Below, in pieces: positions 22,803 through 48,846 of a stretch of DNA of 64,000 nt. The translations under genes were made by a program, and so were the position numbers. The stretch lies in NCBI RefSeq assembly GCF_049347105.1, contig NZ_CP186334.1, positions 3,298,575 to 3,362,574 of the forward strand, read 5' to 3'. The notes beneath the pieces are model-generated. The model searched no databases. It was given only the letters and a program-made list of their open reading frames with translations, and was not told the DNA's origin. How positions within the stretch are numbered: position 1 is the stretch's first letter; each line of letters opens with the position of its first letter. The stretch is from Gaoshiqia hydrogeniformans (lineage in GTDB: Bacteria > Bacteroidota > Bacteroidia > Bacteroidales > Prolixibacteraceae).

Positions 22803-25800
22803 ATGGAAAAACTTTACCTGTGTTTTCGAACATTTCGATTCTTTCAAAAATTCCGTTTGGTATTTTTGATTGTGTTGGGCGGACTCCTGTTCAGTTCCGC
22901 TACAAGCTATGCGCAGTATAACCAGGCAGCTGTGGCTCTCGACCAGTTGCGTAATGGTTCTGCAACCAATCCTCTTCCCGACCCGAGCTGGGTAAATGGT
23001 AACCTGGGCGCTCAAAATTCTCATTATGCCGAGGGTATGTCGGTCGCATACCGTGCCGTAATGATTAAGATGCCTGTTGGCGTGGACGTTCAACTGACGT
23101 TGGAATATGATGCCAAACACAGTGGTAAACATGCCCTGGATTACCTGACACATTTCCAACGGATGGAAGACCACAGTATGTATGGTCACGATGCCGAAAT
23201 AGTTGACCCCACAAAGGGAACAGCCTTTGACGGGCAATTGATGAGTCCGACCAGTACCTGGGCGATTCCTGCTCCTCCGGGATATAACTCCGAGGTTGCC
23301 GGCATGCCGGCATCCAGCCATGCAGCTCTTCCCGGCAGCGAAATCTTGATGGCCATGTGGGGTGGTACCATTTCCGGTATTACGTATACCGACGAAAACG
23401 GTGTCGCCCATGCCGCAGATTTGGCGGTGGCTCAGTCAGCACAGAAAATTACCGTTAATTTTACAGCCGAAGCAGCCTCAGTCGTACTTGCCTGGGGCGG
23501 ACACATCGGCAGCCGGTTGGAGTGGGGATATTTCCCTGACGGAACCCCCAGGTCGGCCGGTGGAATCAGCGGTTCTCCCTATCATATGCGTATCATCGAC
23601 TGGAACCTGAATAATCTGGGAAACCAGGACCGGTCGCTTTCTGCTGACGCCGTTGCCATACCGCCTACCTGCGATGTTGTACCGGTTGATCAGTTTTGTG
23701 GCGGAAAAGTAATCACCTTCCAGGCCACTTCAGATGCCTCAAGTCCAACTTACGTATGGACTATTCTGAACAATACCTCGGGAGCTGCGTTTGTTGGCCC
23801 GACAAACGGGGCTGAAGTAACAGTGCTGTCTGAAAATCCGGGCGGATATACCCTGCACGTGGAAATTTCAGATGGACTTCTGTCGTCCGAATGTGAAACG
23901 GATGCATTGGTGAATGATGTGCCAATCTCGTTTACGCTTCCTGCTGATATTCATTTATGTCAGGATGAAGTTGGGGCAAGCCTGAGTGTGACCCTTGAAA
24001 ACATTGATGCAATCGTTGATTACCTTGCTGATCTTGAAATTAGTTTTTCGATAGATGCTGTTTTACAGCAAGATTATATAAAACTTCAAAATTATCTTGC
24101 CACCAACTTTCCGGCATTTAGCTGGAACGATTTTGTGGCGATTACCGGTGATGGAGACTTCCCGCTGATTGGCGATCTGATTGCTATGCTTGGCGGGTCG
24201 GGTAGCAAAACCATCTCCGTGTCGCTTCGTTTGCCAACAACCGGAATGACCACTGACGTTTGTGTTTTCACCGAGGAAACACAGGTTACCGTTAACGATA
24301 ACCCGCTATGCTCCATTGCCGGCGACGACTCTGTTTGCCCGGACGGGGAATTTACTTATACCTACGACGGAACGTCAGTGATAAGCACATATGCCTGGAG
24401 CGTATCAGGCGATGTAGCAATCATTGGAGGTGCTGATGGTCAATCAGTAACGGTAAAGGCTGACGCCGTTTGCGGAACATTTACCCTTTCATTGGTTGTT
24501 ACGGATGAAAACGGATGTGAAAGTAGCTGCGAAAAAATTGTAGCTATTCAAGATGAAGAGATACCGGTGATCTCAACCGAAGCAGTTGACGGATACGATT
24601 GGGGATGTAACCCCGATGAAATTCCTGTTCCTGAATTTACTGCAACAGATAATTGCGGTGACTTTACACCAAATGTAGCAACAGATGGTCCCGTTCAGGA
24701 TGCCGAAGGTTGCGGTATGAGTCAAACATGGACGGCTACTGTTGTTGATTATTGTGATAATGAGGCTGTTCCGGTAAGTATTACTTATTACTGGAAAGTC
24801 GACCTGGAAGCCCCGGTTATCACGGCCGCCAACGAAGATTCCGACTTAGGTTGTAACCCGACTGCAGAAGAAATCGAAGCAGCGCTTGGCGGCGCAACAG
24901 CTGCCGACAACTGCGATGCAGAAGTTACGGTTGAATATACCGACGGCGATGTGATGGGCGATGACTGCCTGAAGAGCCAGACCCGCACGTTCACCGCTGT
25001 TGACGAATGCGGCAACCAGGCCGAAGCCGTCACGGTTACGGTAAGCTGGAAAGTTGACCTGGAAGCCCCGGTGATCACAGCTGCGAACGAAGATTCCGAC
25101 TTAGGCTGTAACCCGACTGCAGAAGAAATCGAAGCAGCGCTTGGCGGCGCAACAGCTGCCGACAACTGCGATGCAGAAGTTACGGTTGAATATACCGACG
25201 GCGATGTGATGGGCGATGACTGCCTGAAGAGCCAGACCCGCACGTTCACCGCTGTTGACGAATGCGGCAACCAGGCCGAAGCCGTCACGGTTACGGTAAG
25301 CTGGAAAGTTGACCTGGAAGCCCCGGTGATCACAGCTGCGAACGAAGATTCCGACTTAGGCTGTAACCCGACTGCAGAAGAAATCGAAGCAGCGCTTGGC
25401 GGCGCAACAGCTGCCGACAACTGCGATGCAGAAGTTACGGTTGAATATACCGACGGCGATGTGATGGGCGATGACTGCCTGAAGAGCCAGACCCGCACGT
25501 TCACCGCTGTTGACGAATGCGGCAACCAGGCCGAAGCCGTCACGGTTACGGTAAGCTGGAAAGTCGATCTGGAAGCCCCGGTCATCACAGCTGCGAACGA
25601 AGATTCCGACTTAGGCTGTAACCCGACTGCAGAAGAAATCGAAGCAGCGCTTGGCGGCGCAACAGCTGCCGACAACTGCGATGCAGAAGTTACGGTTGAA
25701 TATACCGACGGCGATGTGATGGGCGATGACTGCCTGAAGAGCCAGACCCGCACCTTCACGGCTGTTGACGAATGCGGCAACCAGGCCGAAGCCGTCACCG

Positions 25801-28800
25801 TTACGGTAAGCTGGAAAGTTGATCTGGAAGCCCCGGTGATCACAGCTGCGAACGAAGATTCCGACTTAGGCTGTAACCCGACTGCGGAAGAAATCGAAGC
25901 AGCGCTTGGCGGCGCAACAGCTGCCGACAACTGCGATGCAGAAGTTACGGTTGAATATACCGACGGCGATGTAACAGGCGATGACTGCCTGAAGAGCCAG
26001 ACCCGCACCTTCACGGCTGTTGACGAATGCGGCAACCAGGCCGAAGCCGTCACGGTTACGGTAAGCTGGAAAGTCGATCTGGAAGCCCCGGTGATCACAG
26101 CCGCGAACGAAGATTCCGACTTAGGCTGTAACCCGACTGCGGAAGAAATCGAAGCAGCGCTTGGCGGCGCAACAGCTGCCGACAACTGCGATGCAGAAGT
26201 TACGGTTGAATATACCGACGGCGATGTAACAGGCGATGACTGCCTGAAGAGCCAGACCCGCACCTTCACGGCTGTTGACGAATGCGGCAACCAGGCCGAA
26301 GCCGTCACGGTTACGGTAAGCTGGAAAGTCGATCTGGAAGCCCCGGTGATCACAGCCGCGAACGAAGATTCCGACTTAGGCTGTAACCCGACTGCGGAAG
26401 AAATCGAAGCAGCGCTTGGCGGCGCAACAGCTGCCGACAACTGCGATGCAGAAGTTACGGTTGAATATACCGACGGCGATGTGATGGGCGATGATTGCCT
26501 GAAGAGCCAGACCCGCACCTTCACGGCTGTTGACGAATGCGGCAACCAGGCCGAAGCCGTCACCGTTACGGTAAGCTGGAAAGTCGATCTGGAAGCCCCG
26601 GTGATCACAGCCGCGAACGAAGATTCCGACTTAGGCTGTAACCCGACTGCAGAAGAAATCGAAGCAGCGCTTGGCGGCGCAACAGCTGCCGACAACTGCG
26701 ATGCAGAAGTTACGGTTGAATATACCGACGGCGATGTGATGGGCGATGATTGCCTGAAGAGCCAGACCCGCACGTTCACCGCTGTTGACGAATGCGGCAA
26801 CCAGGCCGAAGCCGTCACAGTTACGGTAAGCTGGAAAGTTGATCTGGAAGCACCGGTCATCACGGCCGCCAACGAAGATTCAGACCTGGGTTGTAACCCG
26901 ACTGCAGAAGAAATCGAAGCAGCGCTTGGCGGCGCAACAGCTGCCGACAACTGCGATGCAGAAGTTACGGTTGAATATACCGACGGCGATGTGATGGGCG
27001 ATGACTGCCTGAAGAGCCAGACCCGCACCTTCACGGCTGTTGACGAATGCGGCAACCAGGCCGAAGCCGTCACTGTTACGGTAAGCTGGAAAGTTGATCT
27101 GGAAGCACCGGTCATCACGGCCGCCAACGAAGATTCCGACTTAGGCTGTAACCCGACTGCAGAAGAAATCGAAGCAGCGCTTGGCGGCGCAACAGCTGCC
27201 GACAACTGCGATGCAGAAGTTACGGTTGAATATACCGACGGCGATGTGATGGGCGATGATTGCCTGAAGAGCCAGACCCGCACGTTCACCGCTGTTGACG
27301 AATGCGGCAACCAGGCCGAAGCCGTCACTGTTACGGTAAGCTGGAAAGTTGATCTGGAAGCCCCGGTTATCACAGCCGCGAACGAAGATTCCGACTTAGG
27401 CTGTAACCCGACTGCAGAAGAAATCGAAGCAGCGCTTGGCGGCGCAACAGCTGCCGACAACTGCGATGCAGAAGTTACGGTTGAATATACCGACGGCGAT
27501 GTAATGGGCGATGACTGCCTGAAGAGCCAGACCCGCACGTTCACCGCTGTTGACGAATGCGGCAACCAGGCCGAAGCCGTCACGGTTACGGTAAGCTGGA
27601 AAGTTGACCTGGAAGCCCCGGTGATCACAGCTGCGAACGAAGATTCAGACCTGGGTTGTAACCCGACTGCAGAAGAAATCGAAGCAGCGCTTGGCGGCGC
27701 AACAGCTGCCGACAACTGCGATGCAGAAGTTACGGTTGAATATACCGACGGCGATGTGATGGGCGATGACTGCCTGAAGAGCCAGACCCGCACCTTCACG
27801 GCTGTTGACGAATGCGGCAACCAGGCCGAAGCCGTCACGGTTACGGTAAGCTGGAAAGTTGATCTGGAAGCACCGGTCATCACAGCTGCGAACGAAGATT
27901 CAGACCTGGGTTGTAACCCGACTGCGGAAGAAATCGAAGCAGCGCTTGGCGGCGCAACAGCTGCCGACAACTGCGATGCAGAAGTTACGGTTGAATATAC
28001 CGACGGCGATGTAACAGGCGATGACTGCCTGAAGAGCCAGACCCGCACCTTCACGGCTGTTGACGAGTGCGGCAACCAGGCCGAAGCCGTCACTGTTACG
28101 GTAAGCTGGAAAGTTGATCTGGAAGCACCGGTCATCACGGCCGCCAACGAAGATTCCGACTTAGGCTGTAACCCGACTGCAGAAGAAATCGAAGCAGCGC
28201 TTGGCGGCGCAACAGCTGCCGACAACTGCGATGCAGAAGTTACGGTTGAATATACCGACGGCGATGTGATGGGCGATGATTGCCTGAAGAGCCAGACCCG
28301 CACGTTCACCGCTGTTGACGAGTGCGGCAACCAGGCCGAAGCAGTAACGGTTACGGTAAGCTGGAAAGTTGACCTGGAAGGACCTGTGATCGAATGTCCT
28401 GACGATATCTATGTTGCCGGATGCGAATTAGCGCCATTCATTGAATTGCCTATAGCAACAGACAACTGCGATGGAGCTGTGGAAGTTACCGCTTCCCGTT
28501 CAGATGGTTTGGAATTGAACGACCCGTTTGCAGAGGGTATAACCACCATCACGTTCACCGCAGTTGATGAATGTGGTAATAATTCAACTGAATGTGTGGT
28601 CAATGTAACCGTTGATCCATGTGAGCCGAACTGTGAAACTGCTTATGGTATGCTGGAAGGCGGTTCAGTTTGCTTCCTTAATGATGGATTCAATCGATGG
28701 GGCTGGACAAACTCAATTTCCGAAGAAGGGGAATATTCAATGCCTCTTTACGCCGGAGCAGCCCAATGTAATCCTGATAAGGGCGAACTGGTCGGTAGGG

Positions 28801-29429
28801 TTGAAGTCACTTATTCAGGAAGTACGCTGACGGTTCAGTACCTAACCGATCCGGGTTATTCGATGAGTGAGGTCCATTTGTACGTCGGATGTGATAAATA
28901 TCCGCTCGCGAAGAACGGAAAAGAAACCGTCGCTCCCGGACAATATACTCATAATGCAGGAAGTCTGAATAAGGTGAATAATTACACGGTTGAATTTACA
29001 AATGTGGAAGGACCTGTTTGGGTAATTGCCCACGCAGTAACCTGTGATGTAAATGGTGCCGGCATGGTCTCCGTTACGGAAATGGGGGTTGACTGTGGCG
29101 GGTTTGCATCGGAAGCAGAACAGCCTGTTGTAGAAGCCACCGAAGATTTATCCGGAAAAGATAATAAACCTGTAAAGATCAAAGCTTTCCCGACACCGTT
29201 CGACAAGAGTGTCAGATTTGAATTTGTACCAAACCAGGATGGTGAGGCACAGATTGGAATCTATAACTTACTCGGAAGTAAGGTTGGGGATGCCCTTAAC
29301 GAAATAGTTTACAAAGGAAGAACCTACTCTGTTGAATTTGACGGTTCCGGGTTACCCGCAGGCGTCTATTATTATCGATTCGTGTTAAATAACCAAACGC
29401 TTACAGGAAAAGTAATTAAAAATAAGTAA
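22803..29429 (+). CDS. giant secreted multi-repeat adhesin-like protein with a T9SS (Por) C-terminal sorting domain and 14 tandem HYR-like repeats
   Basis: 2208-aa ORF with an N-terminal signal peptide (LLFSSATSYAQ). Contains Cys-containing Ig/PKD-like modules and a central array of 85-aa repeats with HYR-type motifs (APVIT...GCNP...ATAADNCD...TFTAVDECGN). The C-terminus (...GVYYYRFVLNNQTLTGKVIKNK) matches the T9SS CTD pattern. A strong terminator follows. Confidence 0.9.
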   Translation: MEKLYLCFRTFRFFQKFRLVFLIVLGGLLFSSATSYAQYNQAAVALDQLRNGSATNPLPDPSWVNGNLGAQNSHYAEGMSVAYRAVMIKMPVGVDVQLTLEYDAKHSGKHALDYLTHFQRMEDHSMYGHDAEIVDPTKGTAFDGQLMSPTSTWAIPAPPGYNSEVAGMPASSHAALPGSEILMAMWGGTISGITYTDENGVAHAADLAVAQSAQKITVNFTAEAASVVLAWGGHIGSRLEWGYFPDGTPRSAGGISGSPYHMRIIDWNLNNLGNQDRSLSADAVAIPPTCDVVPVDQFCGGKVITFQATSDASSPTYVWTILNNTSGAAFVGPTNGAEVTVLSENPGGYTLHVEISDGLLSSECETDALVNDVPISFTLPADIHLCQDEVGASLSVTLENIDAIVDYLADLEISFSIDAVLQQDYIKLQNYLATNFPAFSWNDFVAITGDGDFPLIGDLIAMLGGSGSKTISVSLRLPTTGMTTDVCVFTEETQVTVNDNPLCSIAGDDSVCPDGEFTYTYDGTSVISTYAWSVSGDVAIIGGADGQSVTVKADAVCGTFTLSLVVTDENGCESSCEKIVAIQDEEIPVISTEAVDGYDWGCNPDEIPVPEFTATDNCGDFTPNVATDGPVQDAEGCGMSQTWTATVVDYCDNEAVPVSITYYWKVDLEAPVITAANEDSDLGCNPTAEEIEAALGGATAADNCDAEVTVEYTDGDVMGDDCLKSQTRTFTAVDECGNQAEAVTVTVSWKVDLEAPVITAANEDSDLGCNPTAEEIEAALGGATAADNCDAEVTVEYTDGDVMGDDCLKSQTRTFTAVDECGNQAEAVTVTVSWKVDLEAPVITAANEDSDLGCNPTAEEIEAALGGATAADNCDAEVTVEYTDGDVMGDDCLKSQTRTFTAVDECGNQAEAVTVTVSWKVDLEAPVITAANEDSDLGCNPTAEEIEAALGGATAADNCDAEVTVEYTDGDVMGDDCLKSQTRTFTAVDECGNQAEAVTVTVSWKVDLEAPVITAANEDSDLGCNPTAEEIEAALGGATAADNCDAEVTVEYTDGDVTGDDCLKSQTRTFTAVDECGNQAEAVTVTVSWKVDLEAPVITAANEDSDLGCNPTAEEIEAALGGATAADNCDAEVTVEYTDGDVTGDDCLKSQTRTFTAVDECGNQAEAVTVTVSWKVDLEAPVITAANEDSDLGCNPTAEEIEAALGGATAADNCDAEVTVEYTDGDVMGDDCLKSQTRTFTAVDECGNQAEAVTVTVSWKVDLEAPVITAANEDSDLGCNPTAEEIEAALGGATAADNCDAEVTVEYTDGDVMGDDCLKSQTRTFTAVDECGNQAEAVTVTVSWKVDLEAPVITAANEDSDLGCNPTAEEIEAALGGATAADNCDAEVTVEYTDGDVMGDDCLKSQTRTFTAVDECGNQAEAVTVTVSWKVDLEAPVITAANEDSDLGCNPTAEEIEAALGGATAADNCDAEVTVEYTDGDVMGDDCLKSQTRTFTAVDECGNQAEAVTVTVSWKVDLEAPVITAANEDSDLGCNPTAEEIEAALGGATAADNCDAEVTVEYTDGDVMGDDCLKSQTRTFTAVDECGNQAEAVTVTVSWKVDLEAPVITAANEDSDLGCNPTAEEIEAALGGATAADNCDAEVTVEYTDGDVMGDDCLKSQTRTFTAVDECGNQAEAVTVTVSWKVDLEAPVITAANEDSDLGCNPTAEEIEAALGGATAADNCDAEVTVEYTDGDVTGDDCLKSQTRTFTAVDECGNQAEAVTVTVSWKVDLEAPVITAANEDSDLGCNPTAEEIEAALGGATAADNCDAEVTVEYTDGDVMGDDCLKSQTRTFTAVDECGNQAEAVTVTVSWKVDLEGPVIECPDDIYVAGCELAPFIELPIATDNCDGAVEVTASRSDGLELNDPFAEGITTITFTAVDECGNNSTECVVNVTVDPCEPNCETAYGMLEGGSVCFLNDGFNRWGWTNSISEEGEYSMPLYAGAAQCNPDKGELVGRVEVTYSGSTLTVQYLTDPGYSMSEVHLYVGCDKYPLAKNGKETVAPGQYTHNAGSLNKVNNYTVEFTNVEGPVWVIAHAVTCDVNGAGMVSVTEMGVDCGGFASEAEQPVVEATEDLSGKDNKPVKIKAFPTPFDKSVRFEFVPNQDGEAQIGIYNLLGSKVGDALNEIVYKGRTYSVEFDGSGLPAGVYYYRFVLNNQTLTGKVIKNK
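24791..28360 (+). repeat. 14 tandem copies of a 255-bp (85-codon) near-identical in-frame repeat inside the giant gene
   Basis: The unit boundary CTGGAAAG recurs at 24791, 25046, 25301, and so on to 28361, exactly 255 nt apart. Copies differ at a few mostly synonymous sites plus one Met/Thr site. Copies 2 and 3 (25046..25555) are 100% identical. Confidence 0.95.
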
Positions 29430-38901: not shown

Positions 38902-40020
38902 ATGAAAACTATCCGATACATTCTTCAAAAAGAATTCATCCAGGTATTCCGAAACAAAACCATGTTACCCATGATCTTTGTGTTGCCGCTGGTGCAAATG
39001 CTGATCCTGGTGTTTGCAGCAACCTACGATTTGAAAAACGTGGATATTTATGTGGTTGACCAGGATCTGTCGGCAACTTCGCGCGAACTGACAGGCAAAT
39101 TTGAAGGTTCGCCGTTTTTTCGCTTGCACGACGCGTCGTTTGATCTGCAGGATGCCGAGAACAGTTTCAAAAAAGAAGAGGCGGATTTTGTGTTGGTGAT
39201 TCCGCAGGGTTTTGAACGTTCGTTGGTCCGTGAAGAAGAGGCTAGAGTGCAGCTGCTGATCAACGCGATTGATGGTAGTAAAGCCTCACTGATTTATTCC
39301 TACACCCTGGGGATCCTTTCGGGATTCAACAAGTCGGTGATTGCCGAATGGAAAGGTCTGCCCGAATTTAACCCACCCAGGCGAATCGAGGTGAAAGACA
39401 GCTATTGGTACAATCCCGAACTGGATTACAAGTGGTACATGGCGCCGGGCATCCTGGCTATTTTGGTAACGATTATCGGCATGTTTTTGTCGGGCATGAA
39501 CCTGGTGCGCGAAAAGGAAATCGGCACCATTGAGCAACTCAACGTGACTCCCATTAAAAAGTACCAGTTTATTTTGGGTAAGCTGGCGCCGTTCCTGGTC
39601 ATTGCTTTGTTCGACCTGGCTTTTGGGCTGATTATTGCCCGCGTGGTTTTCGACCTTCCCATCATGGGCAGCCTGCCTTTGCTGTTTGGTTTTGCTGCCC
39701 TTTACCTGGTTGGCGTACTTGGTCTGGGACTGTTTATTTCGACGGTTACCGAAACCCAGCAGCAAGTAATGTTTGTAACCTTCTTCTTTATGATGATTTT
39801 CATCCTGATGGGCGGCATATTCACCCCGGTCGAAAGTATGCCTCATTGGGCGCAATGGCTCGACCGTATCAACCCAATCTACTATTTTATGCGGATTATG
39901 CGCATGGTTGTGCTGAAAGGCTCCGGTTTTTCCGATTTATTGGATGAATTTGTTTCACTGACCGTGATTGGTGTCTCGTTCTTAAGTCTGGCCATCTGGC
40001 GCTACCGGAAAACGAGTTGA
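38902..40020 (+). CDS. ABC-2 family transporter permease
   Basis: Paralog of the preceding permease with the same topology; 372 aa. Confidence 0.85.
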   Translation: MKTIRYILQKEFIQVFRNKTMLPMIFVLPLVQMLILVFAATYDLKNVDIYVVDQDLSATSRELTGKFEGSPFFRLHDASFDLQDAENSFKKEEADFVLVIPQGFERSLVREEEARVQLLINAIDGSKASLIYSYTLGILSGFNKSVIAEWKGLPEFNPPRRIEVKDSYWYNPELDYKWYMAPGILAILVTIIGMFLSGMNLVREKEIGTIEQLNVTPIKKYQFILGKLAPFLVIALFDLAFGLIIARVVFDLPIMGSLPLLFGFAALYLVGVLGLGLFISTVTETQQQVMFVTFFFMMIFILMGGIFTPVESMPHWAQWLDRINPIYYFMRIMRMVVLKGSGFSDLLDEFVSLTVIGVSFLSLAIWRYRKTS

Positions 40021-40086
40021 CCGAAAGGTAAAAGCACCTTATTTTGGTGGTTTTCGTATATATTCCTGTTAAGAAGAAAGGAGGGA

Positions 40087-40452
40087 ATGATGATACCGGT
40101 TATTGAGGGAACGCAATTCGGGATGATTACGATCTCGGGCAGACAATATAATTATGATGTGCTGATCCGCCTGAACGGGCAGATTGAAAAACGGAAAAAG
40201 AAATTATCGAAGGAGAAATACGGAACCTCGCATAAAATTTCGTTGGAAGAAGCAGTTACTATTTATGAGCCAGGAGCAAAACAACTCATTATTGGTACTG
40301 GTCAGATTGGCTATGTAAAGCTTTCAGAAGAGGCAGCTTCGTTTTTTAAGCAAAAGAATTGTCAGGTACGACTGGTTGATACCCTGCAGGCGGTTCACGT
40401 ATGGAATGCCGCTGAAGGAAAAGTAATCGGAATGTTCCATGTTACCTGCTGA
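40087..40452 (+). CDS. small conserved hypothetical protein (possibly Mth938-like fold)
   Basis: 121-aa ORF with protein-like composition and no signal peptide. The family guess is weak. Confidence 0.45.
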   Translation: MMIPVIEGTQFGMITISGRQYNYDVLIRLNGQIEKRKKKLSKEKYGTSHKISLEEAVTIYEPGAKQLIIGTGQIGYVKLSEEAASFFKQKNCQVRLVDTLQAVHVWNAAEGKVIGMFHVTC

Positions 40453-40470
40453 CTATTTTTTACTTAAAAC

Positions 40471-41784
40471 CACTAGTGTCCCATTAAAATCGGGACGTAT
40501 TAATAATTAAACAAATTTGGCTCATTAAGGCTAAAACGTTCTTTGTCATTTTGAAATTTAGTTCTATCAAATAGGTCTCGAAGATTAGTTTTATCTGTTA
40601 AAGATATGCTCAATCTGCAAGACCTCATATGTGCTTCTATCAAGTTGCATGTCCTTTTGGACGATTGCCACCAAGCAGTAAGTGCACATGGCAGCGTAGA
40701 TTTGAATCCGAACAGCATTTTCAGTAGTACCCCAAAACTTTTTGATTTTCAGATGTTGCTTTAACCATTTGAAGAACAGCTCGACTTGCCAGCGGTTCTT
40801 GTAAAGTTCAGCAACCTGCAATGCAGAAATGTGCATTGCATTGGTCAAGAATACAAGCTCACGCTTTTGTTCTTCATCCCAATATCTGACCAATCTAAGA
40901 TGCTCTGGATAGTATTGCTTAGGATAAAACCCAGTCAATTCAATTGTTACATCTGAAAGCACGTTCTTGGGCAATCTTCGTTTCCATTTGATCATCTTGC
41001 ATTGTAGATTCTTTTTGGCTCTTAAAACATAGAAAGCTCCTATTTGATGAATCTTATACAACATCTTGAAGTGATTATATGCACGGTCAAATATGTAATA
41101 TGAGCCTGATTCATAAGGGATCTCTTTCATGGCAGTAGAGTCGTGAACAGATGCTTCAGTGATATGGAAAAATGCAGGTATCTGTGTCTCCACATCGTAT
41201 AATGCATGTACTTTGATTCCACCTTTTTTCTTACGGAACTTCGCCCACCAGAATACCGAAAGGCATAAGTCAATTGTCGTTGAATCAAAAGCATAGACAT
41301 TGCCTTCAAGCTTGAAGATGTCAGCAACGCGTTTCTGCCTGGCTTCGTTTACCAGATAGTAAGCATACTCTTCAAAGATGTGATAGTCCCTGTCTTGATT
41401 GGCTCTGGCCAGTGATGATTTTGAAATGTTCTTGCCCAATCCCAAATGATAAGATTTGGAGTGATGAGCATCAAGTGCGACGATCAAATCTCTAAGACTT
41501 TCACGATTTGACAATTGCCCGAACATCAGAGATAGCAATTGATTCCAACAAGTGAAATGCTTCACGTATTTGTCGCCATTGTATTTGGCAACAATACGAT
41601 TGAATTTGCTTCGATTCAGAAACGAGACCAGTTGAGCGAAAACGTATTTGTCTTGATACATATGCAATCAGAATAATCTGATGCAAAACTAAAAATTCAA
41701 GTCCGTTCGCTCGAAAAATGGATACAACTAACTAAATTTCAAATACATCAAAGAACTTTTTTAGTTTTTAATGGGACGGTAATG
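40471..41784 (-). mobile_element. IS4-family insertion sequence (1314 bp), apparently intact, flanked by 9-bp direct repeats
   Basis: A single DDE transposase ORF. Terminal inverted repeats begin CA...GTCCCATTAAAA (left 40471-40490; reverse complement at the right end 41765-41784). There is an additional subterminal inverted repeat of about 40 bp (40531-40568 versus 41721-41765). An identical 9-bp ACTTAAAAC sequence lies at 40462-40470 and 41785-41793. Confidence 0.75.
40591..41667 (-). CDS. IS4-family DDE transposase
   Basis: 358-aa ORF with IS4-type DDE-domain composition (…YAFDSTTIDL…, …DRAYNHF…) lying between the inverted repeats. Confidence 0.85.
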   Translation of the reverse strand: MHMYQDKYVFAQLVSFLNRSKFNRIVAKYNGDKYVKHFTCWNQLLSLMFGQLSNRESLRDLIVALDAHHSKSYHLGLGKNISKSSLARANQDRDYHIFEEYAYYLVNEARQKRVADIFKLEGNVYAFDSTTIDLCLSVFWWAKFRKKKGGIKVHALYDVETQIPAFFHITEASVHDSTAMKEIPYESGSYYIFDRAYNHFKMLYKIHQIGAFYVLRAKKNLQCKMIKWKRRLPKNVLSDVTIELTGFYPKQYYPEHLRLVRYWDEEQKRELVFLTNAMHISALQVAELYKNRWQVELFFKWLKQHLKIKKFWGTTENAVRIQIYAAMCTYCLVAIVQKDMQLDRSTYEVLQIEHIFNR

Positions 41785-41831
41785 ACTTAAAACATAGAAT
41801 TCAGTAAAACCATTTCATATTTTTTTGGCAT

Positions 41832-42482
41832 ATGCTCATCATTTTTTCTAATTTTAACCGGGAAGAATGTGATCAAGTTGCGCCGGAATTTCTTATATTT
41901 ATTTCAGTCTGTCAGTTATTTCCTATGAGCGTACCCGATGAGAAGATCTTGATAAACGCATTGAAGCAAAGTGACAAGAATGCATTTGATGCAATCTATT
42001 ACAGATGTCACAAAAAGCTTTTTGCTTTCTCATTGAAATTTCTGAAAGACCGGGACGAAACGGAAGATCTGATCCAGAAAGTGTTTACCATTTTGTGGGA
42101 ACGCCGGTTGCATCTGGATGAAAATAAGTCGGTTGAAGGCTATCTTTTTCGGATCGTGCGGAACGAGATTTACGATATTTTAAAACTTCGGGCCATCCGC
42201 GGGCATTACAGCGATTATGTGGTTAACAGCCAGGAGGCAGATTTAGATGAGCTGGAAAAAAAGAAGATAATTGAGCAGGTTTTTCAGTTGGTTGATCATT
42301 TGCCTGAGCGGCGCGCTCAAATTTTCCGGATGAGTAAAGAAGAAGGATTAACTTACAGGCAGATTGCCGAAATTCTGCAGATCTCCGAAAATACGGTGGA
42401 TACCCAGATCCGCCACAGCCTCGATTATTTAAGAAAAGAAATGCACAAACTCAGGCTGATCATCCTGAGCATTCTCCCCTGA
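41832..42482 (+). CDS. RNA polymerase ECF-type sigma-70 factor (PUL regulator)
   Basis: Sigma-70 regions 2 and 4. Followed by FecR and a SusC with an N-terminal extension. The likely true start is the Met at 41925. Confidence 0.85.
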   Translation: MLIIFSNFNREECDQVAPEFLIFISVCQLFPMSVPDEKILINALKQSDKNAFDAIYYRCHKKLFAFSLKFLKDRDETEDLIQKVFTILWERRLHLDENKSVEGYLFRIVRNEIYDILKLRAIRGHYSDYVVNSQEADLDELEKKKIIEQVFQLVDHLPERRAQIFRMSKEEGLTYRQIAEILQISENTVDTQIRHSLDYLRKEMHKLRLIILSILP

Positions 42483-42576
42483 ATTCTTATTTTCTTCAGA
42501 ACCTCAAAAAAATAACTTTCCCTTTCACGGAAAGAAACGCTTTTCAGGTATTCTTCATTGTAGAATCACGAATACC

Positions 42577-43686
42577 ATGCAAAAGAAGAAGGAAATAAAA
42601 GAGCTCCTGGAACGGTTTTCTTTTGGGAAAATCAGTAAAGCCGAGCGAAAAATTGTATTCGATTTCTTTAATGATCCTGAGAATGAACCCCTTGTTTATG
42701 ACTGGATCGGCGAGAAATGGAATGAAACAGGTGCGGACGAATTAACGGCTGAATTTTCGTCGGCCGACTTACTCAACCGGATTCATCGGAAAATTGAACA
42801 GCAAAAACAGTCGGGAGTATCTGTGCTGAAAAAAGGAAATGCACGTTTGAGCCGAATTGCAAAAGTCGCGTTGCGTTATGCAGCGGTATGCCTGCTTGCC
42901 TGGGGCGCCCAATGGTATTGGCTGACACAGCTGTCTGAAAGCGCCGGATCACAAAGCTCTTACAACGAAATTGTTGTGCCGCACGGTTCAAAATCGATGA
43001 TCGTGTTGGGCGACAGTACCAAAGTATGGTTGAACGCCGGCGCCAGGTTTCGTTATCCAACCAATTTTGAACAAAAAGGAAGGGAAATTTTTCTCGAAGG
43101 GGAAGCTTATTTCGAAGTCCAAAAGGATGAACACCGCCCTTTTTTAGTCAACATGAACGGCATGAATATTAAAGTGCACGGAACCAAATTCAATGTCAGG
43201 GCCTATGCCGGAGATACCCGGATCGAAACGGCCCTGCTGGAAGGTTCGATCGAAGTGATCGGGGTAAAATCAGCGCAGGGCAACGACGATAATTTATTTC
43301 TTAAGCCGGGTCAGAAGCTGGTGCTGTTTAAGGAGATTAACCAAGATGATGCGATTTCGGATCATCAGGGAAACCGTTTTGGCGATTCGGCCCCGGTTAA
43401 AATAGCACGTGCAGAACTGACGAACCTGCTTAGCGCCGAAAACGAAATTGCCTGGTGTGCGGATAAGCTGGTATTTGAACGGCAACGGTTTGATGAAGTG
43501 AAAACCAAACTGGAACGCTGGTACGGCGTAACCATTGATATACAGGATTCGTCGGTCTTGAACTACCGGTTTACGGGAACCTTTGACCAGGAAACTTTTG
43601 AACAGGCCATTGGCGCCTTAAAACATGCCGCCTCGTTCGAATATGAATTAAATAAGAAACACGTGATCATTAGAAAAAACAAATAA
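42577..43686 (+). CDS. FecR-family anti-sigma factor
   Basis: TM helix, a FecR domain and a C-terminal DUF4974-like region; 369 aa. Confidence 0.85.
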   Translation: MQKKKEIKELLERFSFGKISKAERKIVFDFFNDPENEPLVYDWIGEKWNETGADELTAEFSSADLLNRIHRKIEQQKQSGVSVLKKGNARLSRIAKVALRYAAVCLLAWGAQWYWLTQLSESAGSQSSYNEIVVPHGSKSMIVLGDSTKVWLNAGARFRYPTNFEQKGREIFLEGEAYFEVQKDEHRPFLVNMNGMNIKVHGTKFNVRAYAGDTRIETALLEGSIEVIGVKSAQGNDDNLFLKPGQKLVLFKEINQDDAISDHQGNRFGDSAPVKIARAELTNLLSAENEIAWCADKLVFERQRFDEVKTKLERWYGVTIDIQDSSVLNYRFTGTFDQETFEQAIGALKHAASFEYELNKKHVIIRKNK

Positions 43687-43818: not shown

Positions 43819-46800
43819 ATGAAAAAAAATTATTACGTACAAGGGAGAGATGCATTAATTTCTCTCTCCGGAAAAATTTTATTAGTCATGAAACTAACTA
43901 TCGGAATGATCTTATTTTTTGTGTTTCAGGCTACCGCGGTCATTTCCCAGAACACGGTCGCAACCATAAATGTAAAAAACCTGGAAATGGACCGGTTCTT
44001 TACGGAAATTGAACGGCAAACCTCCGTGAAATTTCTTTACCGCTACGAGAATATTGAAGGGAAACGGGTCAGCGTTAACATGGAGAATGCAACCGTTGAT
44101 GAGCTTCTTGAAATGGCGCTTCAGGGCAAAGGGCTCGATTTCAGTAAAATGGGGCATAACCTGATCGTTATTTCCTCAGTAGCCGGTTCCGAACCATCCG
44201 CATCGATGCAAAGCAGGAGAGTAACGGGTAAGGTGACGATCGAATCCGGGCTGCCTTTGCCCGGAGTAGGCATTTCGATCCAGGGAACCACGACCGGAAC
44301 AATCTCCGACGGAGAGGGAAACTATAGTCTGGTGGTTCCGAACGACCAGGCTGTTCTTCACTTTTCATTTATCGGTTATACCCCGCAGGATATTCAGGTA
44401 GGAAGCCAAACAATCATAAATGTGGTGATGGTTGAAGAAAAACTGGCGATTGAAGAAGTGGTTGTTACGGCGCTGGGTATCGAAAAAAGTAAAAAGAGTC
44501 TGACCTATTCAACCCAGCAGGTCGATATCAACAGCCTGACGGCGATCAAAGATGTTAGCCTGGGGAACGCACTGGCCGGTAAAATCGCAGGAGTTTCCAT
44601 TACTGCCTCCACCGGGGCCAGCGGTGTTTCCGGAGATCCGCGTATCATCATCCGCGGCGACCGTACCATCAACGGGGTCGCTCAGCCCCTGGTGGTGGTT
44701 GACGGGATTCAGATGGGAACCAGCGGAGGCGAACTTTCGGGAATTAATCCCGATGATGTGCAAAGCATAAATGTGCTGAAAGGCCCTGCCGCTTCCGCCC
44801 TTTACGGATCAAACGCTCAAAACGGCGTAATTGTGGTGACTACAAAGAAAGGTAAAGCCGGAGCTGCAAAAATAGAAGTCAATTCTGTGACTACTTTCGA
44901 CTTGCCGTATCTGTATCCTGAGTTTCAAAACGAATATTCACAGGGAACCGGCGGCGCTTTTAATGCACAGGAGTTTGTGAAAAGCTGGGGGGTAAAAATG
45001 ACCGGGCAAACCGTGGTCGACTGGACAGGGAAAGAAACCAAGCTCTTGCCGCAACGCAATAATGTGAAGGATTTTTTCCGGACCGGAAATAATTTCACCA
45101 ACAGCTTTTCGTATAGTACCGGAACAGAGAAATCAACCACCTATTTTTCATACAGCAACACGGTGGCTCAGGGCGTTTTGGAAGATAACAGACTGACCCG
45201 GCACAATTTTAACATGCGTTTGAATACCGAACTGCTGAAAAACCTGAACATGGATTTTAAGATTACTTATTACCGCCAGCACCTGAACGACAAGCCGGTT
45301 ACCGGCGACGACTTGTTCAGCCCCATGTTCCAGTTGCTGAAAATGCCACGTAGTATCCGGACCGACGATATTAAAGCGGCTTCGTATTATGATAATGAAT
45401 TCTCGTTGAAACAATTAACCTGGGCTCCGGGCGCTACAGAAGTGGTGAACCCCTACTGGTCTGAAAAAGGTTACGAAGCGCCGGCTACTACCAACCGGGT
45501 AAACACCTTTTTGACCTTGCGCTACGATTTTGCCAGCTGGTTATATGTCCAGTTAAGAGGTGGAATGAATATCGCCAATAACGATGAAGAACGAAAAACC
45601 TATTGGGATACGCAGTATATTAACTCCGGACAAGGAAACTATTACACCAGGTTTGGCAAAAATCAAAATATCAACGGCGACGTTTTGCTGGTATTCAACA
45701 AAGAACTGGTAAAAAACCTGCGGTTGAATTTGAACCTGGGGGCCGAAATAAAAGATTCGCAGGCCCGGAGTATGGAATCGAACTCCAACGGGCTGACTGC
45801 GGAAAATAAATTTGCGTTGAGTTATGCCAAAAGTTTGGTCAGCACCGATGCCGAATCGCGCATTCAGCGTCAGTCTGTTTACGGGATGGGGCAACTAAGT
45901 TACCGTGATTTGTTATTTCTGGATGTCACGGCCCGGAACGACTGGAGCTCGACCCTGCCTGCGCCACATGATTATTTTTACCCTTCCGTTGGTTTAACTG
46001 CCGTAGTTTCCGATATGTTGACCTTACCGGAATTGATCTCTTTTGCCAAACTGCGCGGTTCTTATGCCGAAGTCGGTAACGGCGCCGGTTTTGCCCAGAT
46101 TTATAATACATACTCTGCCGCTGCAACGGGGCCGGTGGGAACATTCTATCCTTCAGGAACGAGAATGCCGATCGACCTGATTCCCGAAAAAACCAAATCA
46201 TGGGAGGCCGGAGGTGAAATCCGGTTTATGGATAACCGACTGGGGATTGACTTTACCTGGTACAAATCGAACACACTCAATCAGTTGATCCTGGTTGTTA
46301 CGCCTGCTACTTCAGGTTACAGCCAAAGCTGGATCAACTGCGGGAACATTCAAAACAAGGGGATTGAAGTGATGGTTAACGCCATACCTGTAAAAACTTC
46401 CGACTTTGACTGGTCAATTGATTTGAATTTCTCGAAGAACAAGAATAAGGTGGTTGAGTTGACCGATATCCAAAAGGAATATGAGGTTAGTTCGCCGAAC
46501 CTGTCACTTGGACAAACCTGGGCAATTGTAGGCAAACCGTTTGGCGAAATCTATACCTACGGTTATGTGAAAAATGACGCGGGGAAAATTATTGTTGATT
46601 CAAGCGGACTGCCAAAGATTGATTATTCGAACACGCCGACCCCCAATACATACCTGGGGAATTTTAATTATGACTGGCAAAGCGGGATGACCAACAATTT
46701 GCGTTATAAAAACTGGAATTTGACTTTCCTGATCGACCTGAATTATGGCGGGGTCCGGCAATCGGCTACCGAAGCCATGATGCTGGAAACCGGAACAAGC

Positions 46801-47193
46801 AAGGCTTCTCTCTTTGGCCGTGAAGGAGGTATCCTGATCGATGGTGTCAAAGATTCAGACGGAACGCCGAATGACATCCGGGTGGATGCCCAGACCTACG
46901 CTGCCGCCCTTGGCGGGCGCATCAGCAACGGGGCCGGAGAACCGTTTAGCCACGAGGCCACCAACTCGCGTTTGCGGGAGTTTTCAGTAGGTTACACGAT
47001 CCCGTTACGGAGCAATATGGTGAAATTGCTGAGGGTTTCCGCAGTAGGGCGTAACCTGTTTTACATCTATAACGGCTGTTCCTGGTTCGATCCCGATGTG
47101 ACTTATGATGTTGACCGGAACGGACAGGGAGCAGAAAGCGCCTTTTTGCCGGGTATGCGTACCGTGGGTGTTAATGTCCGGTTTACTTTATAA
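43819..47193 (+). CDS. SusC/RagA-family TonB-dependent receptor with an N-terminal anti-sigma-signalling (STN) extension
   Basis: 1124 aa containing a carboxypeptidase-regulatory domain, a plug domain and a beta-barrel. The C-terminus ends ...VRFTL. Followed by SusD. Confidence 0.9.
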   Translation: MKKNYYVQGRDALISLSGKILLVMKLTIGMILFFVFQATAVISQNTVATINVKNLEMDRFFTEIERQTSVKFLYRYENIEGKRVSVNMENATVDELLEMALQGKGLDFSKMGHNLIVISSVAGSEPSASMQSRRVTGKVTIESGLPLPGVGISIQGTTTGTISDGEGNYSLVVPNDQAVLHFSFIGYTPQDIQVGSQTIINVVMVEEKLAIEEVVVTALGIEKSKKSLTYSTQQVDINSLTAIKDVSLGNALAGKIAGVSITASTGASGVSGDPRIIIRGDRTINGVAQPLVVVDGIQMGTSGGELSGINPDDVQSINVLKGPAASALYGSNAQNGVIVVTTKKGKAGAAKIEVNSVTTFDLPYLYPEFQNEYSQGTGGAFNAQEFVKSWGVKMTGQTVVDWTGKETKLLPQRNNVKDFFRTGNNFTNSFSYSTGTEKSTTYFSYSNTVAQGVLEDNRLTRHNFNMRLNTELLKNLNMDFKITYYRQHLNDKPVTGDDLFSPMFQLLKMPRSIRTDDIKAASYYDNEFSLKQLTWAPGATEVVNPYWSEKGYEAPATTNRVNTFLTLRYDFASWLYVQLRGGMNIANNDEERKTYWDTQYINSGQGNYYTRFGKNQNINGDVLLVFNKELVKNLRLNLNLGAEIKDSQARSMESNSNGLTAENKFALSYAKSLVSTDAESRIQRQSVYGMGQLSYRDLLFLDVTARNDWSSTLPAPHDYFYPSVGLTAVVSDMLTLPELISFAKLRGSYAEVGNGAGFAQIYNTYSAAATGPVGTFYPSGTRMPIDLIPEKTKSWEAGGEIRFMDNRLGIDFTWYKSNTLNQLILVVTPATSGYSQSWINCGNIQNKGIEVMVNAIPVKTSDFDWSIDLNFSKNKNKVVELTDIQKEYEVSSPNLSLGQTWAIVGKPFGEIYTYGYVKNDAGKIIVDSSGLPKIDYSNTPTPNTYLGNFNYDWQSGMTNNLRYKNWNLTFLIDLNYGGVRQSATEAMMLETGTSKASLFGREGGILIDGVKDSDGTPNDIRVDAQTYAAALGGRISNGAGEPFSHEATNSRLREFSVGYTIPLRSNMVKLLRVSAVGRNLFYIYNGCSWFDPDVTYDVDRNGQGAESAFLPGMRTVGVNVRFTL

Positions 47194-47217: not shown

Positions 47218-48846
47218 ATGAAAAAATATATAACAACTTATTCGTTTGTACTGATCCTTTTGTTGTTTGCCGGAATGTGCGTCCTTCATTCCTGTACGGA
47301 TGATTTTACGGAATACAATACGGATAAATCTAAAATGATGGCCGTAGGGCCAAAGCAAATGGCCGGCTTATTCTCCCGTACCCAAATGGAAGGAATCAAC
47401 TGGTTAACTACCGACAACTACAGTCGTATCTCAAGTACCATGGCTAACCACTTTGCCGGTTATATTGTTTGCGGAATTTCTAACCAGGAAACAAATATCA
47501 TGAATACCGGCTGGCAAAATACCGGGTTTAGCCGGATTTATTCCAGCGCTTACCCGCCTCTTCAAAGTGTCTTTGATGTGTCGCGGAATGGCATAAATGA
47601 TGCCGCTTACAATGTGGGATTGATCTGGAAGGTATTTTTACTGCACCGCATGACCGATCTTTGGGGGCCTGTTCCCTATTCAAAAGCGGGCAGCGGCGAG
47701 GCCGTGGTTCCTTACGAAAGCCAGAGAGATGTTTATTACATGATGTTTGACGACCTGAACAATGCCGTTACTGCCTTGAACGGCCTGTTGCAAAAAACAC
47801 CGGGATTGAATGTATTTGGCGCCGGCGATATGATCTACAACGGCGATGTTGCCAAATGGGTGAAACTGGCCAATACCATGCGCCTTCGTTTGGCCATACG
47901 TATTTCCAATGTGGATGCATCAAAAGCGCAGGCTGAAGCCGAAACTGCTGTGCAATTGGGGACGCTGGAAACCAATGCTGACGATGCTTTGCTGGCAGTA
48001 AACAGATGGACCAGCGGCGGCAACGGAATGCCCCGCATGGAGTCGTTCTACCAGGATGTGATGAGCGCCAGCATGGAAAGTTTGCTGAAAGGCTACAACG
48101 ATCCCCGCATGCAGGAATTTTTCTCTCCGGTCGATCCTGTTAATATCACCGATGCTTTCCCCGATGAATTAAAAACAAATGCGGGTGGATATCACGGGAT
48201 GGCCAACGGCAGCGAGCCTATTTATTTTCCTTATTTCAGAGCGTATTCGAAGTATGGTCCACGCTTTAAAGACGGCAACCAGTTGGTGACGCCGGTCAAT
48301 ATCATGAATGCTTCGGAAGCCTGGTTCCTGAAAGCCGAAGGCGCCTGGAGAGGCTGGAATATGGGGAGCGGCACCGCCCAGTCGTTTTACGAAAAAGGGA
48401 TTGAAATCTCTATCAAACAATGGAGGGGAACAACCTTTTCATCCACAGCAATTACTGATTATATTAACGGAACGACCACCCCGGTGGCTCCGGGAAATTA
48501 CCCGTATAACGATCCGCCGATGACGAACATCCCGGTAAAATTTTCAACCGACAAAACAACCCAGTACGAGCAGATTATCACGCAGAAATGGCTGGCATTG
48601 TTCCCCATCAGTGTTGAAGCTTTCGCTGAATACCGGAGAACACGTTTGCCAAAAATTTATATGAAGAAGTATTCGGCCAATGCCAATGTCAATCCGGCAA
48701 ACGGGCAAATCGTAACCCGGCTTCCATTTACGACAGGAGAGAAAACTTCTCAGCCCGACGAAGTTGAAAAAGCCGTTCAGTTGCTTGGAGGACCCGACCT
48801 GGAAACCACCCCTCTGTGGTGGGATGTGAATAACAACGGGAATTAG
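47218..48846 (+). CDS. SusD/RagB-family lipoprotein
   Basis: Lipoprotein signal (VLHSC); 542 aa, helical TPR-like composition; lies immediately after SusC. Confidence 0.85.
   Translation: MKKYITTYSFVLILLLFAGMCVLHSCTDDFTEYNTDKSKMMAVGPKQMAGLFSRTQMEGINWLTTDNYSRISSTMANHFAGYIVCGISNQETNIMNTGWQNTGFSRIYSSAYPPLQSVFDVSRNGINDAAYNVGLIWKVFLLHRMTDLWGPVPYSKAGSGEAVVPYESQRDVYYMMFDDLNNAVTALNGLLQKTPGLNVFGAGDMIYNGDVAKWVKLANTMRLRLAIRISNVDASKAQAEAETAVQLGTLETNADDALLAVNRWTSGGNGMPRMESFYQDVMSASMESLLKGYNDPRMQEFFSPVDPVNITDAFPDELKTNAGGYHGMANGSEPIYFPYFRAYSKYGPRFKDGNQLVTPVNIMNASEAWFLKAEGAWRGWNMGSGTAQSFYEKGIEISIKQWRGTTFSSTAITDYINGTTTPVAPGNYPYNDPPMTNIPVKFSTDKTTQYEQIITQKWLALFPISVEAFAEYRRTRLPKIYMKKYSANANVNPANGQIVTRLPFTTGEKTSQPDEVEKAVQLLGGPDLETTPLWWDVNNNGN

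Follow-up and report, generated by a model that had tools for sequence, protein, structure and literature searches.

A recent IS4-family insertion with a frameshifted transposase gene beside a PUL regulator of Gaoshiqia sp. Z1-71

An insertion sequence situated upstream of a regulatory gene raises the questions of whether it arrived recently, whether it can still move and whether it has altered the expression of its neighbour. Such a case is found in Gaoshiqia sp. Z1-71 (G. hydrogeniformans, Prolixibacteraceae), where, within the 64-kb stretch of DNA that was analysed (the window), the initial annotation described an IS4-family element next to the ECF sigma gene of a SusC/SusD locus and regarded it as recent, intact and probably still mobile. 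The locus was found to hold an ordinary, recent insertion of a very common Bacteroidota IS4-family element near a sugar-utilisation (PUL) regulator. The explanation preferred here, to which a probability of about 0.8 is given as a whole, is that this IS4 element bears a 2-bp deletion, is probably mobilised in trans, and through its insertion probably has a small effect on the PUL.

The complete insertion sequence spans positions 40471 to 41784 (minus strand) and is 1314 bp in length, as had been proposed, with boundaries identical to those of two contigs consisting of the IS only, L003 (1314 bp) and L002, both of which show 100% identity to it. It has a GC content of 37.9%, compared to 46.5% for the window. 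The element ends are CA...TG, and the terminal inverted repeats are 19 bp long with 16 of the 19 positions identical. These are CACTAGTGTCCCATTAAAA (40471-40489, plus strand) at the 3’ end of the transposase gene, a repeat pattern seen at more than 119 genome loci, and CATTACCGTCCCATTAAAA (41766-41784, on the minus strand) at its 5’ end. A small conserved hairpin, GTCCC-N9-GGGAC (40478-40496), follows the terminal repeat CACTAGTGTCCCATTAAAA. The additional subterminal inverted repeats of the initial annotation were also identified, at about 31-32 bp rather than about 40 bp, with the left repeat AAAACGTTCTTTGTCATTTTGAAATTTAGTT (40533-40563, plus strand), invariant in relatives, pairing with the right repeat (41730-41761, plus strand) over approximately 27 matches and one indel. 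Contigs of the two flanks (L001 and L004) end 27 and 29 nt inside the element ends; together with the IS-only contigs, this is how a multi-copy repeat would be expected to assemble. A search of Rfam with positions 39900-42600 returned no match at E<=1, and a literature search for the terminal sequence returned an unrelated match only.

The transposase gene (40591-41661, minus strand) encodes a protein of 356 aa (WP_423126649.1) with DUF4372 and DDE_Tnp_1 domains (PF14294 and PF01609) and a C-terminus truncated by a frameshift. The PF01609 match scored 118.6 bits and covered profile positions 5-200 of 200, while NF033592 (transpos_IS4_1), with a cut-off of 115, scored 284.3 bits. The 358 aa previously assigned to this protein depend on a TTG start; the start used by the family and by RefSeq is the ATG at 41661, giving 356 aa. 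Residues D126, D192 and E294, along with Y287-R290-E294-K301, were invariant among 17 aligned elements, the Y-(2)-R-(3)-E-(6)-K motif thus being complete and accompanied by the D, D, E triad. It is this complete motif that separates IS4 from IS701, ISH3 and IS1634 (PMC2266710). The IS4 family is further marked by 5’-CA repeats at the ends and by target duplications of about 8-13 bp, and here the CA...TG ends are accompanied by a duplication of 9 bp. On these sequence features the element, whose DDE transposase is of the YREK type, is placed in the IS4 family, the domains, NF033592 score and motif all agreeing with the family first assigned to it. A sequence search against solved structures in the PDB gave chance matches only (E>0.3). 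A motif scan identified TAGTTTTG (41684-41691, minus strand), which lies 23 nt before the ATG of the transposase gene, matches the -7 consensus of Bacteroides (TAnnTTTG, as quoted in PMC4747536) exactly and is likely to be the promoter of that gene.

DNA and protein alignments located a 2-bp deletion between positions 40613 and 40614 (minus strand), where CAGA--TTGAGC is found compared to CAGATCTTGAG or CAGATATTGAG in relatives. Through the shifted frame, five unrelated residues take the place of the conserved C-terminal 37, and the product has 356 aa. An out-of-frame remnant coding for the conserved C-terminal tail LSISLTDKTNLRDLFDRTKFQNDKERFSLNEPNLFNY and its stop codon is retained at 40500-40613 (minus strand), as the C-terminal part of an ORF in the +1 frame (40500-40718). 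Intact copies have this tail in frame, and it is identical to that of an intact 387-aa transposase, P0187, of the same genome. Transposases of the aligned relatives are 385-396 aa in length, and among 7705 homologues at E<=1e-100 nearly all of the best 120 have 387 aa, so that the full-length ORF expected of an autonomous copy is not present in this one. The tail is conserved across elements as distant as 74% nt identity, with a pN/pS of 0.15 compared to 0.11 for the core, and is under purifying selection. The copy derives from an intact 1316-bp element encoding 387 aa through the 2-bp deletion. The ORF had been described as uninterrupted and intact; it is indeed open, but with this frameshift it cannot be called intact. 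Despite the deletion, both element ends and the catalytic D-D-E/YREK residues are preserved, and no inactivating substitution, which would have counted against the initial view, was found at D126, D192 or E294. An AlphaFold2 model of the C-terminal tail, built from a shallow alignment of 28 sequences, was unusable (mean pLDDT of 46.6).

Further copies, which the initial annotation had suggested looking for, were recorded in the same genome. The truncated form of 356 aa is present in at least three copies (XQW71395, XQW71435 and XQW71462) and the intact form of 387 aa (WP_423126395.1) in at least two (XQW71132 and XQW73089). Residues 1-351 are the same in both forms, and the +1 frame of the window encodes the tail of the intact form. 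An identical copy of 1314 bp was also identified in metagenome ERZ27315057 with a different flank (GTTT vs AAGT). One 100%-identical IS-only contig came from a short-read assembly with the same insertion and another from a different sample, and the short-read (Logan) IS contig follows the deleted variant. Intact ends, at least three identical proteins in the genome and a 100% copy with a different flank are the marks of recent movement, and the recent age claimed for the insertion is upheld by the identity to the IS-only contigs, including that of another sample. The claim that the copy is probably still mobile does not stand in the autonomous sense, the 37 conserved C-terminal residues having been lost. 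As truncated and intact sister copies share a genome and are identical over residues 1-351, the copy is taken to be recent and probably trans-mobilised, and for its movement it would probably rely on the intact sister copies of this genome. The truncated form has most likely spread, and can most likely still move, through transposase supplied in trans by the intact 387-aa copies, and the 1314-bp copy would thus behave as a largely non-autonomous element.

At the insertion site, the element is bracketed by a perfect 9-bp direct repeat, ACTTAAAAC, at 40462-40470 (left) and 41785-41793 (right). This sequence is present exactly twice in the window, both copies directly adjoining the element, and the target-site duplication initially described was thereby corroborated. 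DDE transposition brought the element into this AT-rich 9-mer, which lies in the spacer separating a DUF498 gene from the ECF-sigma gene, and repair of the staggered cut at ACTTAAAAC produced the duplication. The DUF498 gene (DUF498/MTH938-NDUFAF3 family, PF04430; 40087-40452, plus strand, 121 aa) is the last before the insertion. Comparison with relatives lacking the IS, which had also been proposed, revealed the same two flanking genes directly adjacent at about 95% nt identity (loci L124 and L137). Since these IS-free relatives have a different, unalignable spacer of 126 bp at the insertion position, the pre-insertion state is reconstructed, as ...CTATTTTTTACTTAAAACATAGAATTC..., and not observed. 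JGI metagenomes were scanned twice for the predicted empty site, with a 24-mer spanning the junction and with a 25-mer taken from the right flank, and both scans gave 0 matches. The 126-bp spacer was considered as a possible repeat or MITE, which was rejected, no other copy being found in the window or in the fetched loci. A 14-nt identity shared by 41021-41034 and 41786-41799 suggested that the AT-rich spacer around the insertion might be left over from an earlier IS copy; this was also rejected, since shuffled sequences reached the local-alignment score in 32% of cases and natural AT-rich 56-mers in 20 of 52.

On the other side of the element lies the PUL. The ECF sigma factor (probable true CDS at 41925-42482, plus strand, 185 aa; TIGR02985, 135.8 bits) is followed by a FecR-type anti-sigma factor with FecR and FecR_C domains (42577-43686, plus strand), a SusC with an N-terminal STN extension (43819-47193; STN at 29.7 bits, Plug) and a SusD-like protein (47218-48846), and then by GH78 and GH2. 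This is the gene order of a PUL controlled by an ECF sigma/anti-sigma pair through trans-envelope signalling, and the context was as initially described; so was the orientation of the element away from the sigma gene, the transposase gene being divergent on the minus strand. The distance of 47 bp between element and sigma gene had been counted from the start of the longest ORF (41832), and sigma homologues of 185-187 aa begin at the position of M32, which is the ATG at 41925. By comparison with these homologues the gene most likely starts at 41925, the ORF from 41832 being an upstream over-extension, which would place the IS 140 bp upstream of the sigma gene. A candidate native sigma promoter, TTTG (41824-41827)-N21-TAATTTTA (41849-41856), was identified by motif scan on the plus strand at 41824-41856, with the IS 31 bp upstream of it and the last base of its -7 motif off consensus. 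A block of 110 bp upstream of the sigma gene, which includes the TAATTTTA motif, is untouched and approximately 99% conserved in IS-free relatives. The sigma-facing end of the IS holds an outward motif, TTTC-N21-TAGTTTTT, that extends to 41769, leaving 15 bp to the IS boundary, and has one mismatch per element to -33 TTTG and -7 TAnnTTTG. These promoter assignments are motif matches only. A scan for sigma-70-type promoters and terminators, a type of scan unsuited to Bacteroidota, gave no more matches than shuffled sequence.

Were the 9-mer a chance repeat, the element could be an old, fixed relic. At least two copies of the AT-rich ACTTAAAAC occur somewhere in 21 of 100 shuffles of the window, and the exact empty site was missing from both metagenome scans, but both copies stand exactly at the CA/TG termini, which by chance has a probability of about 6e-6. 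Because perfect 9-bp duplications are also present at the same CA/TG junctions in 19 of 24 related full-length elements (10/13 and 9/11), the 9-mer is not ascribed to chance. Copies of 100% identity elsewhere and the absence of the IS between the same two genes in close relatives speak against an old relic, and this reading is effectively refuted already, with next to no probability left to it. It is also conceivable that the 356-aa transposase works without its C-terminal tail, so that the copy transposes by itself. The intact catalytic residues and inverted repeats would agree with this, as would the three or more identical truncated copies in the genome, the identical copy at a different site in another sample and the short-read contig of the deleted variant. 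The recorded copies of the truncated form are at least as many as those of the intact form, and both these counts and the Logan contig fit a still-active truncated transposase; the deletion could also spread from copy to copy by gene conversion, with no transposition involved, and all of this detracts from mobilisation in trans. Autonomy is, however, difficult to reconcile with the 387-aa length of nearly all of the best 120 homologues, with the conservation of the tail down to 74% nt identity and the purifying selection on it, and with the presence of intact helper copies in this genome. The best-studied transposase of the IS4 family, that of Tn5, requires its C-terminal helix to form the synaptic complex, which likewise argues against autonomy, although homology of the present tail to this helix is not established here. 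An autonomously active copy is consequently judged to be unlikely, and the probable dependence of the truncated copy on its intact sisters is retained.

Regarding the sigma gene, the insertion might rewire the PUL, either through an outward IS promoter or by displacing the native promoter or operator, with sigma/anti-sigma expression and PUL induction changed as a result. The arrangement is similar to that of IS-borne promoters in Bacteroides, in which an IS on the other strand immediately precedes cfiA, nim or erm and brings a promoter (PMC6927303). The imperfect outward motif close to the IS end and the removal by the IS of any read-through from the upstream operon also favour such rewiring. 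However, both hexamer-equivalents of the outward motif are off consensus, and the sequence upstream of the 110-bp block is not conserved at all in IS-free relatives. The better motif, TTTG-N21-TAATTTTA, sits downstream of the IS within the conserved block, for which reason the native core promoter appears untouched. Rewiring of the PUL is therefore also regarded as improbable. With this block left intact, the effect of the insertion on PUL regulation would most likely be small, while the sigma gene would be separated from upstream read-through transcription and any far-upstream sites; a regulatory effect is possible but unsupported. A broader reading, by which the 356-aa variant is functional and still binds the IS ends (self-sufficient, or a regulator or competitor of the 387-aa enzyme) and/or the IS end feeds transcription into the ECF-sigma gene, is decidedly doubtful. 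If transcription from the IS end did occur, the rhamnosidase/GH2 PUL would be partly constitutive in strain Z1-71.

Under the preferred explanation of a deleted, probably trans-mobilised copy with little effect on the PUL, the significance of the locus is small, being that of one more recent insertion of a very widespread Bacteroidota IS4 element beside a PUL regulator. It is already known that IS elements commonly insert within or near susC/susD loci (PMC10592638). For annotation, the transposase should be flagged as frameshifted and the sigma start placed, probably, at 41925, and claims of regulatory rewiring require transcript mapping. A single genome with both intact copies and copies carrying the 2-bp deletion provides a simple natural test of whether transposition requires the conserved tail.

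Related elements of 1316-1318 bp, labelled as IS4 family transposase, are found in chromosomes of gut Bacteroides and Parabacteroides and on their plasmids of approximately 98 kb (for example NZ_AP019726.1 and NZ_CP072215.1), as well as in many other Bacteroidota. They share with the element of the window the same 19-bp termini, the subterminal repeats, the 9-bp target-site duplication and the 387-aa architecture, at 74-93% nt identity, with no copy retrieved from other genomes exceeding 93% and the relatives listed by a scan of a genome collection reaching 92% at most. The window element differs from them by its 2-bp deletion. A MITE-like derivative of 214 bp with the same ends was observed in a Rikenellaceae MAG (L057).

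Among described groups, IS4Sa (ISfinder; De Palmenaer et al. 2008, PMC2266710) is tabulated with ends CA------T, a length of 1150-1750 bp and direct repeats of 8-10 bp (Table 1 of that study), to which the ends CACTAGTGT and CATTACCGT, the 1314 bp and the 9-bp duplication of this element conform. DDE_Tnp_1 with the full YREK motif, 5’-CA termini with T at position 9 and a single ORF are likewise shared; the N-terminal DUF4372 domain and the frameshifted 3’ end of this copy are differences. An IS4Sa-type placement fits, on the tabulated descriptors only. The activation of cfiA, nim and erm genes by outward promoters of IS1186/IS1168, IS942, IS4351 and IS612-615 in Bacteroides fragilis resembles this locus in having an IS shortly upstream of a gene and on the opposite strand. 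Those elements come from other families or lineages, and outward promoters have been demonstrated in them, whereas the present IS has an imperfect outward motif, and a conserved native promoter-like block remains between it and the gene. With trans-mobilised non-autonomous IS derivatives (defective copies and MITEs), the copy has in common intact ends, a defective transposase gene and intact masters. IS4-family transposases such as those of Tn5 and IS10 act preferentially in cis, making mobilisation in trans less efficient. As the defect of the window copy is a C-terminal truncation only, residual activity is possible.

Comparison of the borders of the 1314-bp element (40471-41784) showed that the window contains exactly two copies of ACTTAAAAC (40462-40470 and 41785-41793), both abutting the element termini, as described in the initial annotation. 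The termini, CACTAGTGTCCCATTAAAA and, on the other strand, CATTACCGTCCCATTAAAA, agree at 16 of 19 positions. The further inverted repeats reported beneath them do exist as a subterminal pair (40533-40563 and 41730-41761), though somewhat shorter (approximately 31-32 bp) than the roughly 40 bp proposed. The chance of a 9-mer repeat lying at exactly these junctions was approximately 6e-6 given the local base composition, and relatives of the element showed perfect 9-bp duplications at identical CA/TG junctions (10 of 13 in one set, 9 of 11 in another), their 9-mers being AT-rich (27% GC). The window 9-mer therefore represents a true target-site duplication rather than a coincidental repeat. A GTCCC-N9-GGGAC hairpin (40478-40496), which is kept in relatives and overlaps the terminal repeat only at the 3' end of the transposase gene, could be an additional transposase-binding site or a barrier to transcription. 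The 14-mer CTTAAAACATAGAA within the element (41021-41034) is identical to 41786-41799, comprising 8 nt of the right duplication and the following 6 nt of flank; local-alignment tests against shuffles and natural AT-rich 56-mers gave no significance, and this identity is probably due to chance.

The minus-strand ORF of the element matches DUF4372 and DDE_Tnp_1, and scored 284 bits with the NCBIfam IS4 model NF033592 (cut-off 115). Alignment of the transposase with those of 16 related elements revealed D126, D192 and E294 to be invariant, with no inactivating substitution among them, as was the Y287-(2)-R290-(3)-E294-(6)-K301 motif, and assignment to the IS4 family was thus correct. Full-length relatives are 1310-1318 bp in size with 74-93% nucleotide identity, and plasmids of Bacteroides and Parabacteroides carry copies of approximately 80% identity under the plain annotation 'IS4 family transposase'. 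When one genome per species was scanned for the degenerate terminal 19-mer, at least 119 loci were identified, the matches listed including Bacteroidales, Marinilabiliales, Flavobacteriales and Sphingobacteriales. This IS family is very large, and the element is an ordinary representative of it.

Contigs L022, L073, L055 and L084 also have the terminal pattern, and their MAGs bear the labels Patescibacteria, Rickettsiales, Erysipelotrichaceae and Clostridia. That of Erysipelotrichaceae (L055) includes a full-length copy of 80% identity with a perfect 9-bp duplication. These are either mis-binned Bacteroidota contigs or cases of transfer beyond the phylum. Two contigs consist of the element only, namely one of 1318 bp in Parabacteroides distasonis NM39_I3 (NODE_122, L071; coverage 7966, where chromosomal contigs of this assembly have approximately 515-597) and one of 1316 bp in Bacteroidaceae HV4-6-C5C (NODE_56, L012; coverage 3059). 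Such very high coverage implies that, in some gut strains, a genome has about ten copies or more. Furthermore, a Rikenellaceae MAG (JBCQUO010000013.1, L057) has a 214-bp MITE-like element (7121-7334) with the same 19-bp termini, the subterminal motif and an internal hairpin, bordered by ATCATTCAC and ACCATTCAC (8 of 9 positions identical); it resembles a miniature, non-autonomous derivative of the IS family.

The transposase ORF of the window copy is not intact, contrary to its initial description. It encodes 356 aa from the ATG at 41661 (the 358 aa first reported being counted from an upstream TTG), while transposases of relatives are 385-396 aa, mostly 387. A protein search returned 7705 homologues at E<=1e-100, and nearly all of the best 120 were of 387 aa, among them some that share 95-98% identity with the query. 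In the DNA alignment, the window lacks 2 bp between 40613 and 40614, reading CAGA--TTGAGC where relatives have CAGATCTTGAG or CAGATATTGAG. This deletion swaps the conserved C-terminal 37 aa (LSISLTDKT.LRDLF..TKFQNDKERF.LNEPNLFN.) for EHIFNR, with the lost tail persisting undamaged in the +1 frame (40500-40613, the end of ORF 40500..40718). Among 11 distinct 387-aa relatives, the tail had a pN/pS of 0.15, compared with 0.11 in the core, and it is thus a functional part of the transposase. Elsewhere in the window, the ORF list includes a very long plus-strand ORF of 2208 aa (22803-29429), with an ORF of 1180 aa on the opposite strand.

In the 5.69-Mb genome of the host, identified by exact sequence matching as Gaoshiqia sp. 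Z1-71 (G. hydrogeniformans; Prolixibacteraceae, Marinilabiliales), the 356-aa protein (WP_423126649.1) corresponds to at least three GenBank proteins (XQW71395, XQW71435 and XQW71462). From accession numbering we infer XQW71435 to be the window copy, as it falls between XQW71434 (DUF498) and XQW71437 (FecR). The same genome encodes a 387-aa form (WP_423126395.1) as at least two proteins (XQW71132 and XQW73089). Residues 1-351 of this form are identical to those of the window protein, and its C-terminus is exactly the tail that the window encodes out of frame. The window copy is therefore a recent 2-bp-deletion derivative, with the intact form coexisting in the same cell. Together with the recovery of the 1314 bp at 100% identity in other samples, this bears out the recent insertion initially claimed. 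The accession numbers of the three recorded truncated copies are close together and would place these within approximately 70 genes of each other, which hints at local hopping or regional duplication, although the clustering may be an artefact of which accessions are recorded, there being at least three.

The deleted form is present at no fewer than three loci in Z1-71, and another sample has it at a different site; it either moved after the deletion arose or was passed on by gene conversion. For its movement, the most likely mechanism would be that the intact transposase mobilises it in trans; the main rival to this is that the truncated 356-aa protein keeps residual activity. The short-read Logan assembly DRR398238 has this insertion too. 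Its contigs with exact copies of the flanking proteins run into the element ends, the left one ending 27 nt and the right one beginning 29 nt inside, with the element forming a separate contig of exactly 1314 bp (100% identity). Such breaks are the signature of a repeat with several different flanks in the genome, not of a polymorphic site that is filled or empty. In a second sample (ENA ERZ27315057), the same 1314 bp (100% identity) adjoins a flank of GTTT versus AAGT. The window element is frameshifted and is probably a non-autonomous copy of a very common IS.

Regarding the neighbouring ECF sigma gene, the ORF of 216 aa that begins at 41832 is over-extended. Homologues (51-71% identity) are of 185-197 aa and begin at the position of M32, corresponding to ATG 41925, so that the element ends 140 bp from the probable start codon and not 47 bp as first measured. 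In two metagenome contigs of a close relative (L124 and L137; approximately 95% nucleotide identity in coding sequence), the DUF498 and sigma genes are adjacent without the element, and therefore an IS-free allele exists at the level of gene order, but the exact empty site of the window lineage was not found in two metagenome scans. Homology to these contigs is perfect until 3 nt beyond the DUF498 stop codon and resumes with one mismatch in approximately 110 bp, from about 41816 down to the sigma ATG. Their intervening sequence (440-568 in L124, the same in L137) could not be aligned with window 40453-40470 and 41794-41815; their spacer is 126 bp, GC-rich and hairpin-forming (MFE -41.7 kcal/mol), as opposed to approximately 41 AT-rich bp in the window once the element is subtracted. 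Neither the window nor the fetched loci contain a further copy of the 126-bp spacer.

The conserved block holds TTTG (41824-27), N21 and TAATTTTA (41849-56), with the element 31 bp upstream, and this motif is near the Bacteroides -33/-7 promoter consensus TTTG/TAnnTTTG (as quoted in PMC4747536). The sigma-facing end of the element has only an imperfect outward motif (TTTC-N21-TAGTTTTT). An exact TAGTTTTG lies on the opposite strand (41691-41684) at a position well suited to a transposase promoter, for which it is a candidate. The downstream locus is a typical sigma/anti-sigma-controlled polysaccharide-utilisation locus, encoding a FecR anti-sigma factor, SusC with an STN extension, SusD, a metallophosphoesterase-PA14 protein, a GH78 rhamnosidase, GH2 and further genes. 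An effect of the insertion on its regulator is conceivable and would probably be small.

By the descriptors that De Palmenaer et al. 2008 tabulate (PMC2266710), namely size, CA------T ends and 9-bp duplication, the element fits the IS4Sa subgroup. Insertions in or near susC/susD loci have already been documented as frequent in Bacteroidia, with at least one IS4-family element at such loci favouring intergenic sites (PMC10592638). In the classical cases of IS-activated cfiA, nim and erm, the IS lies on the opposite strand (PMC6927303); the window element has this same orientation, and a regulatory effect is possible for that reason.
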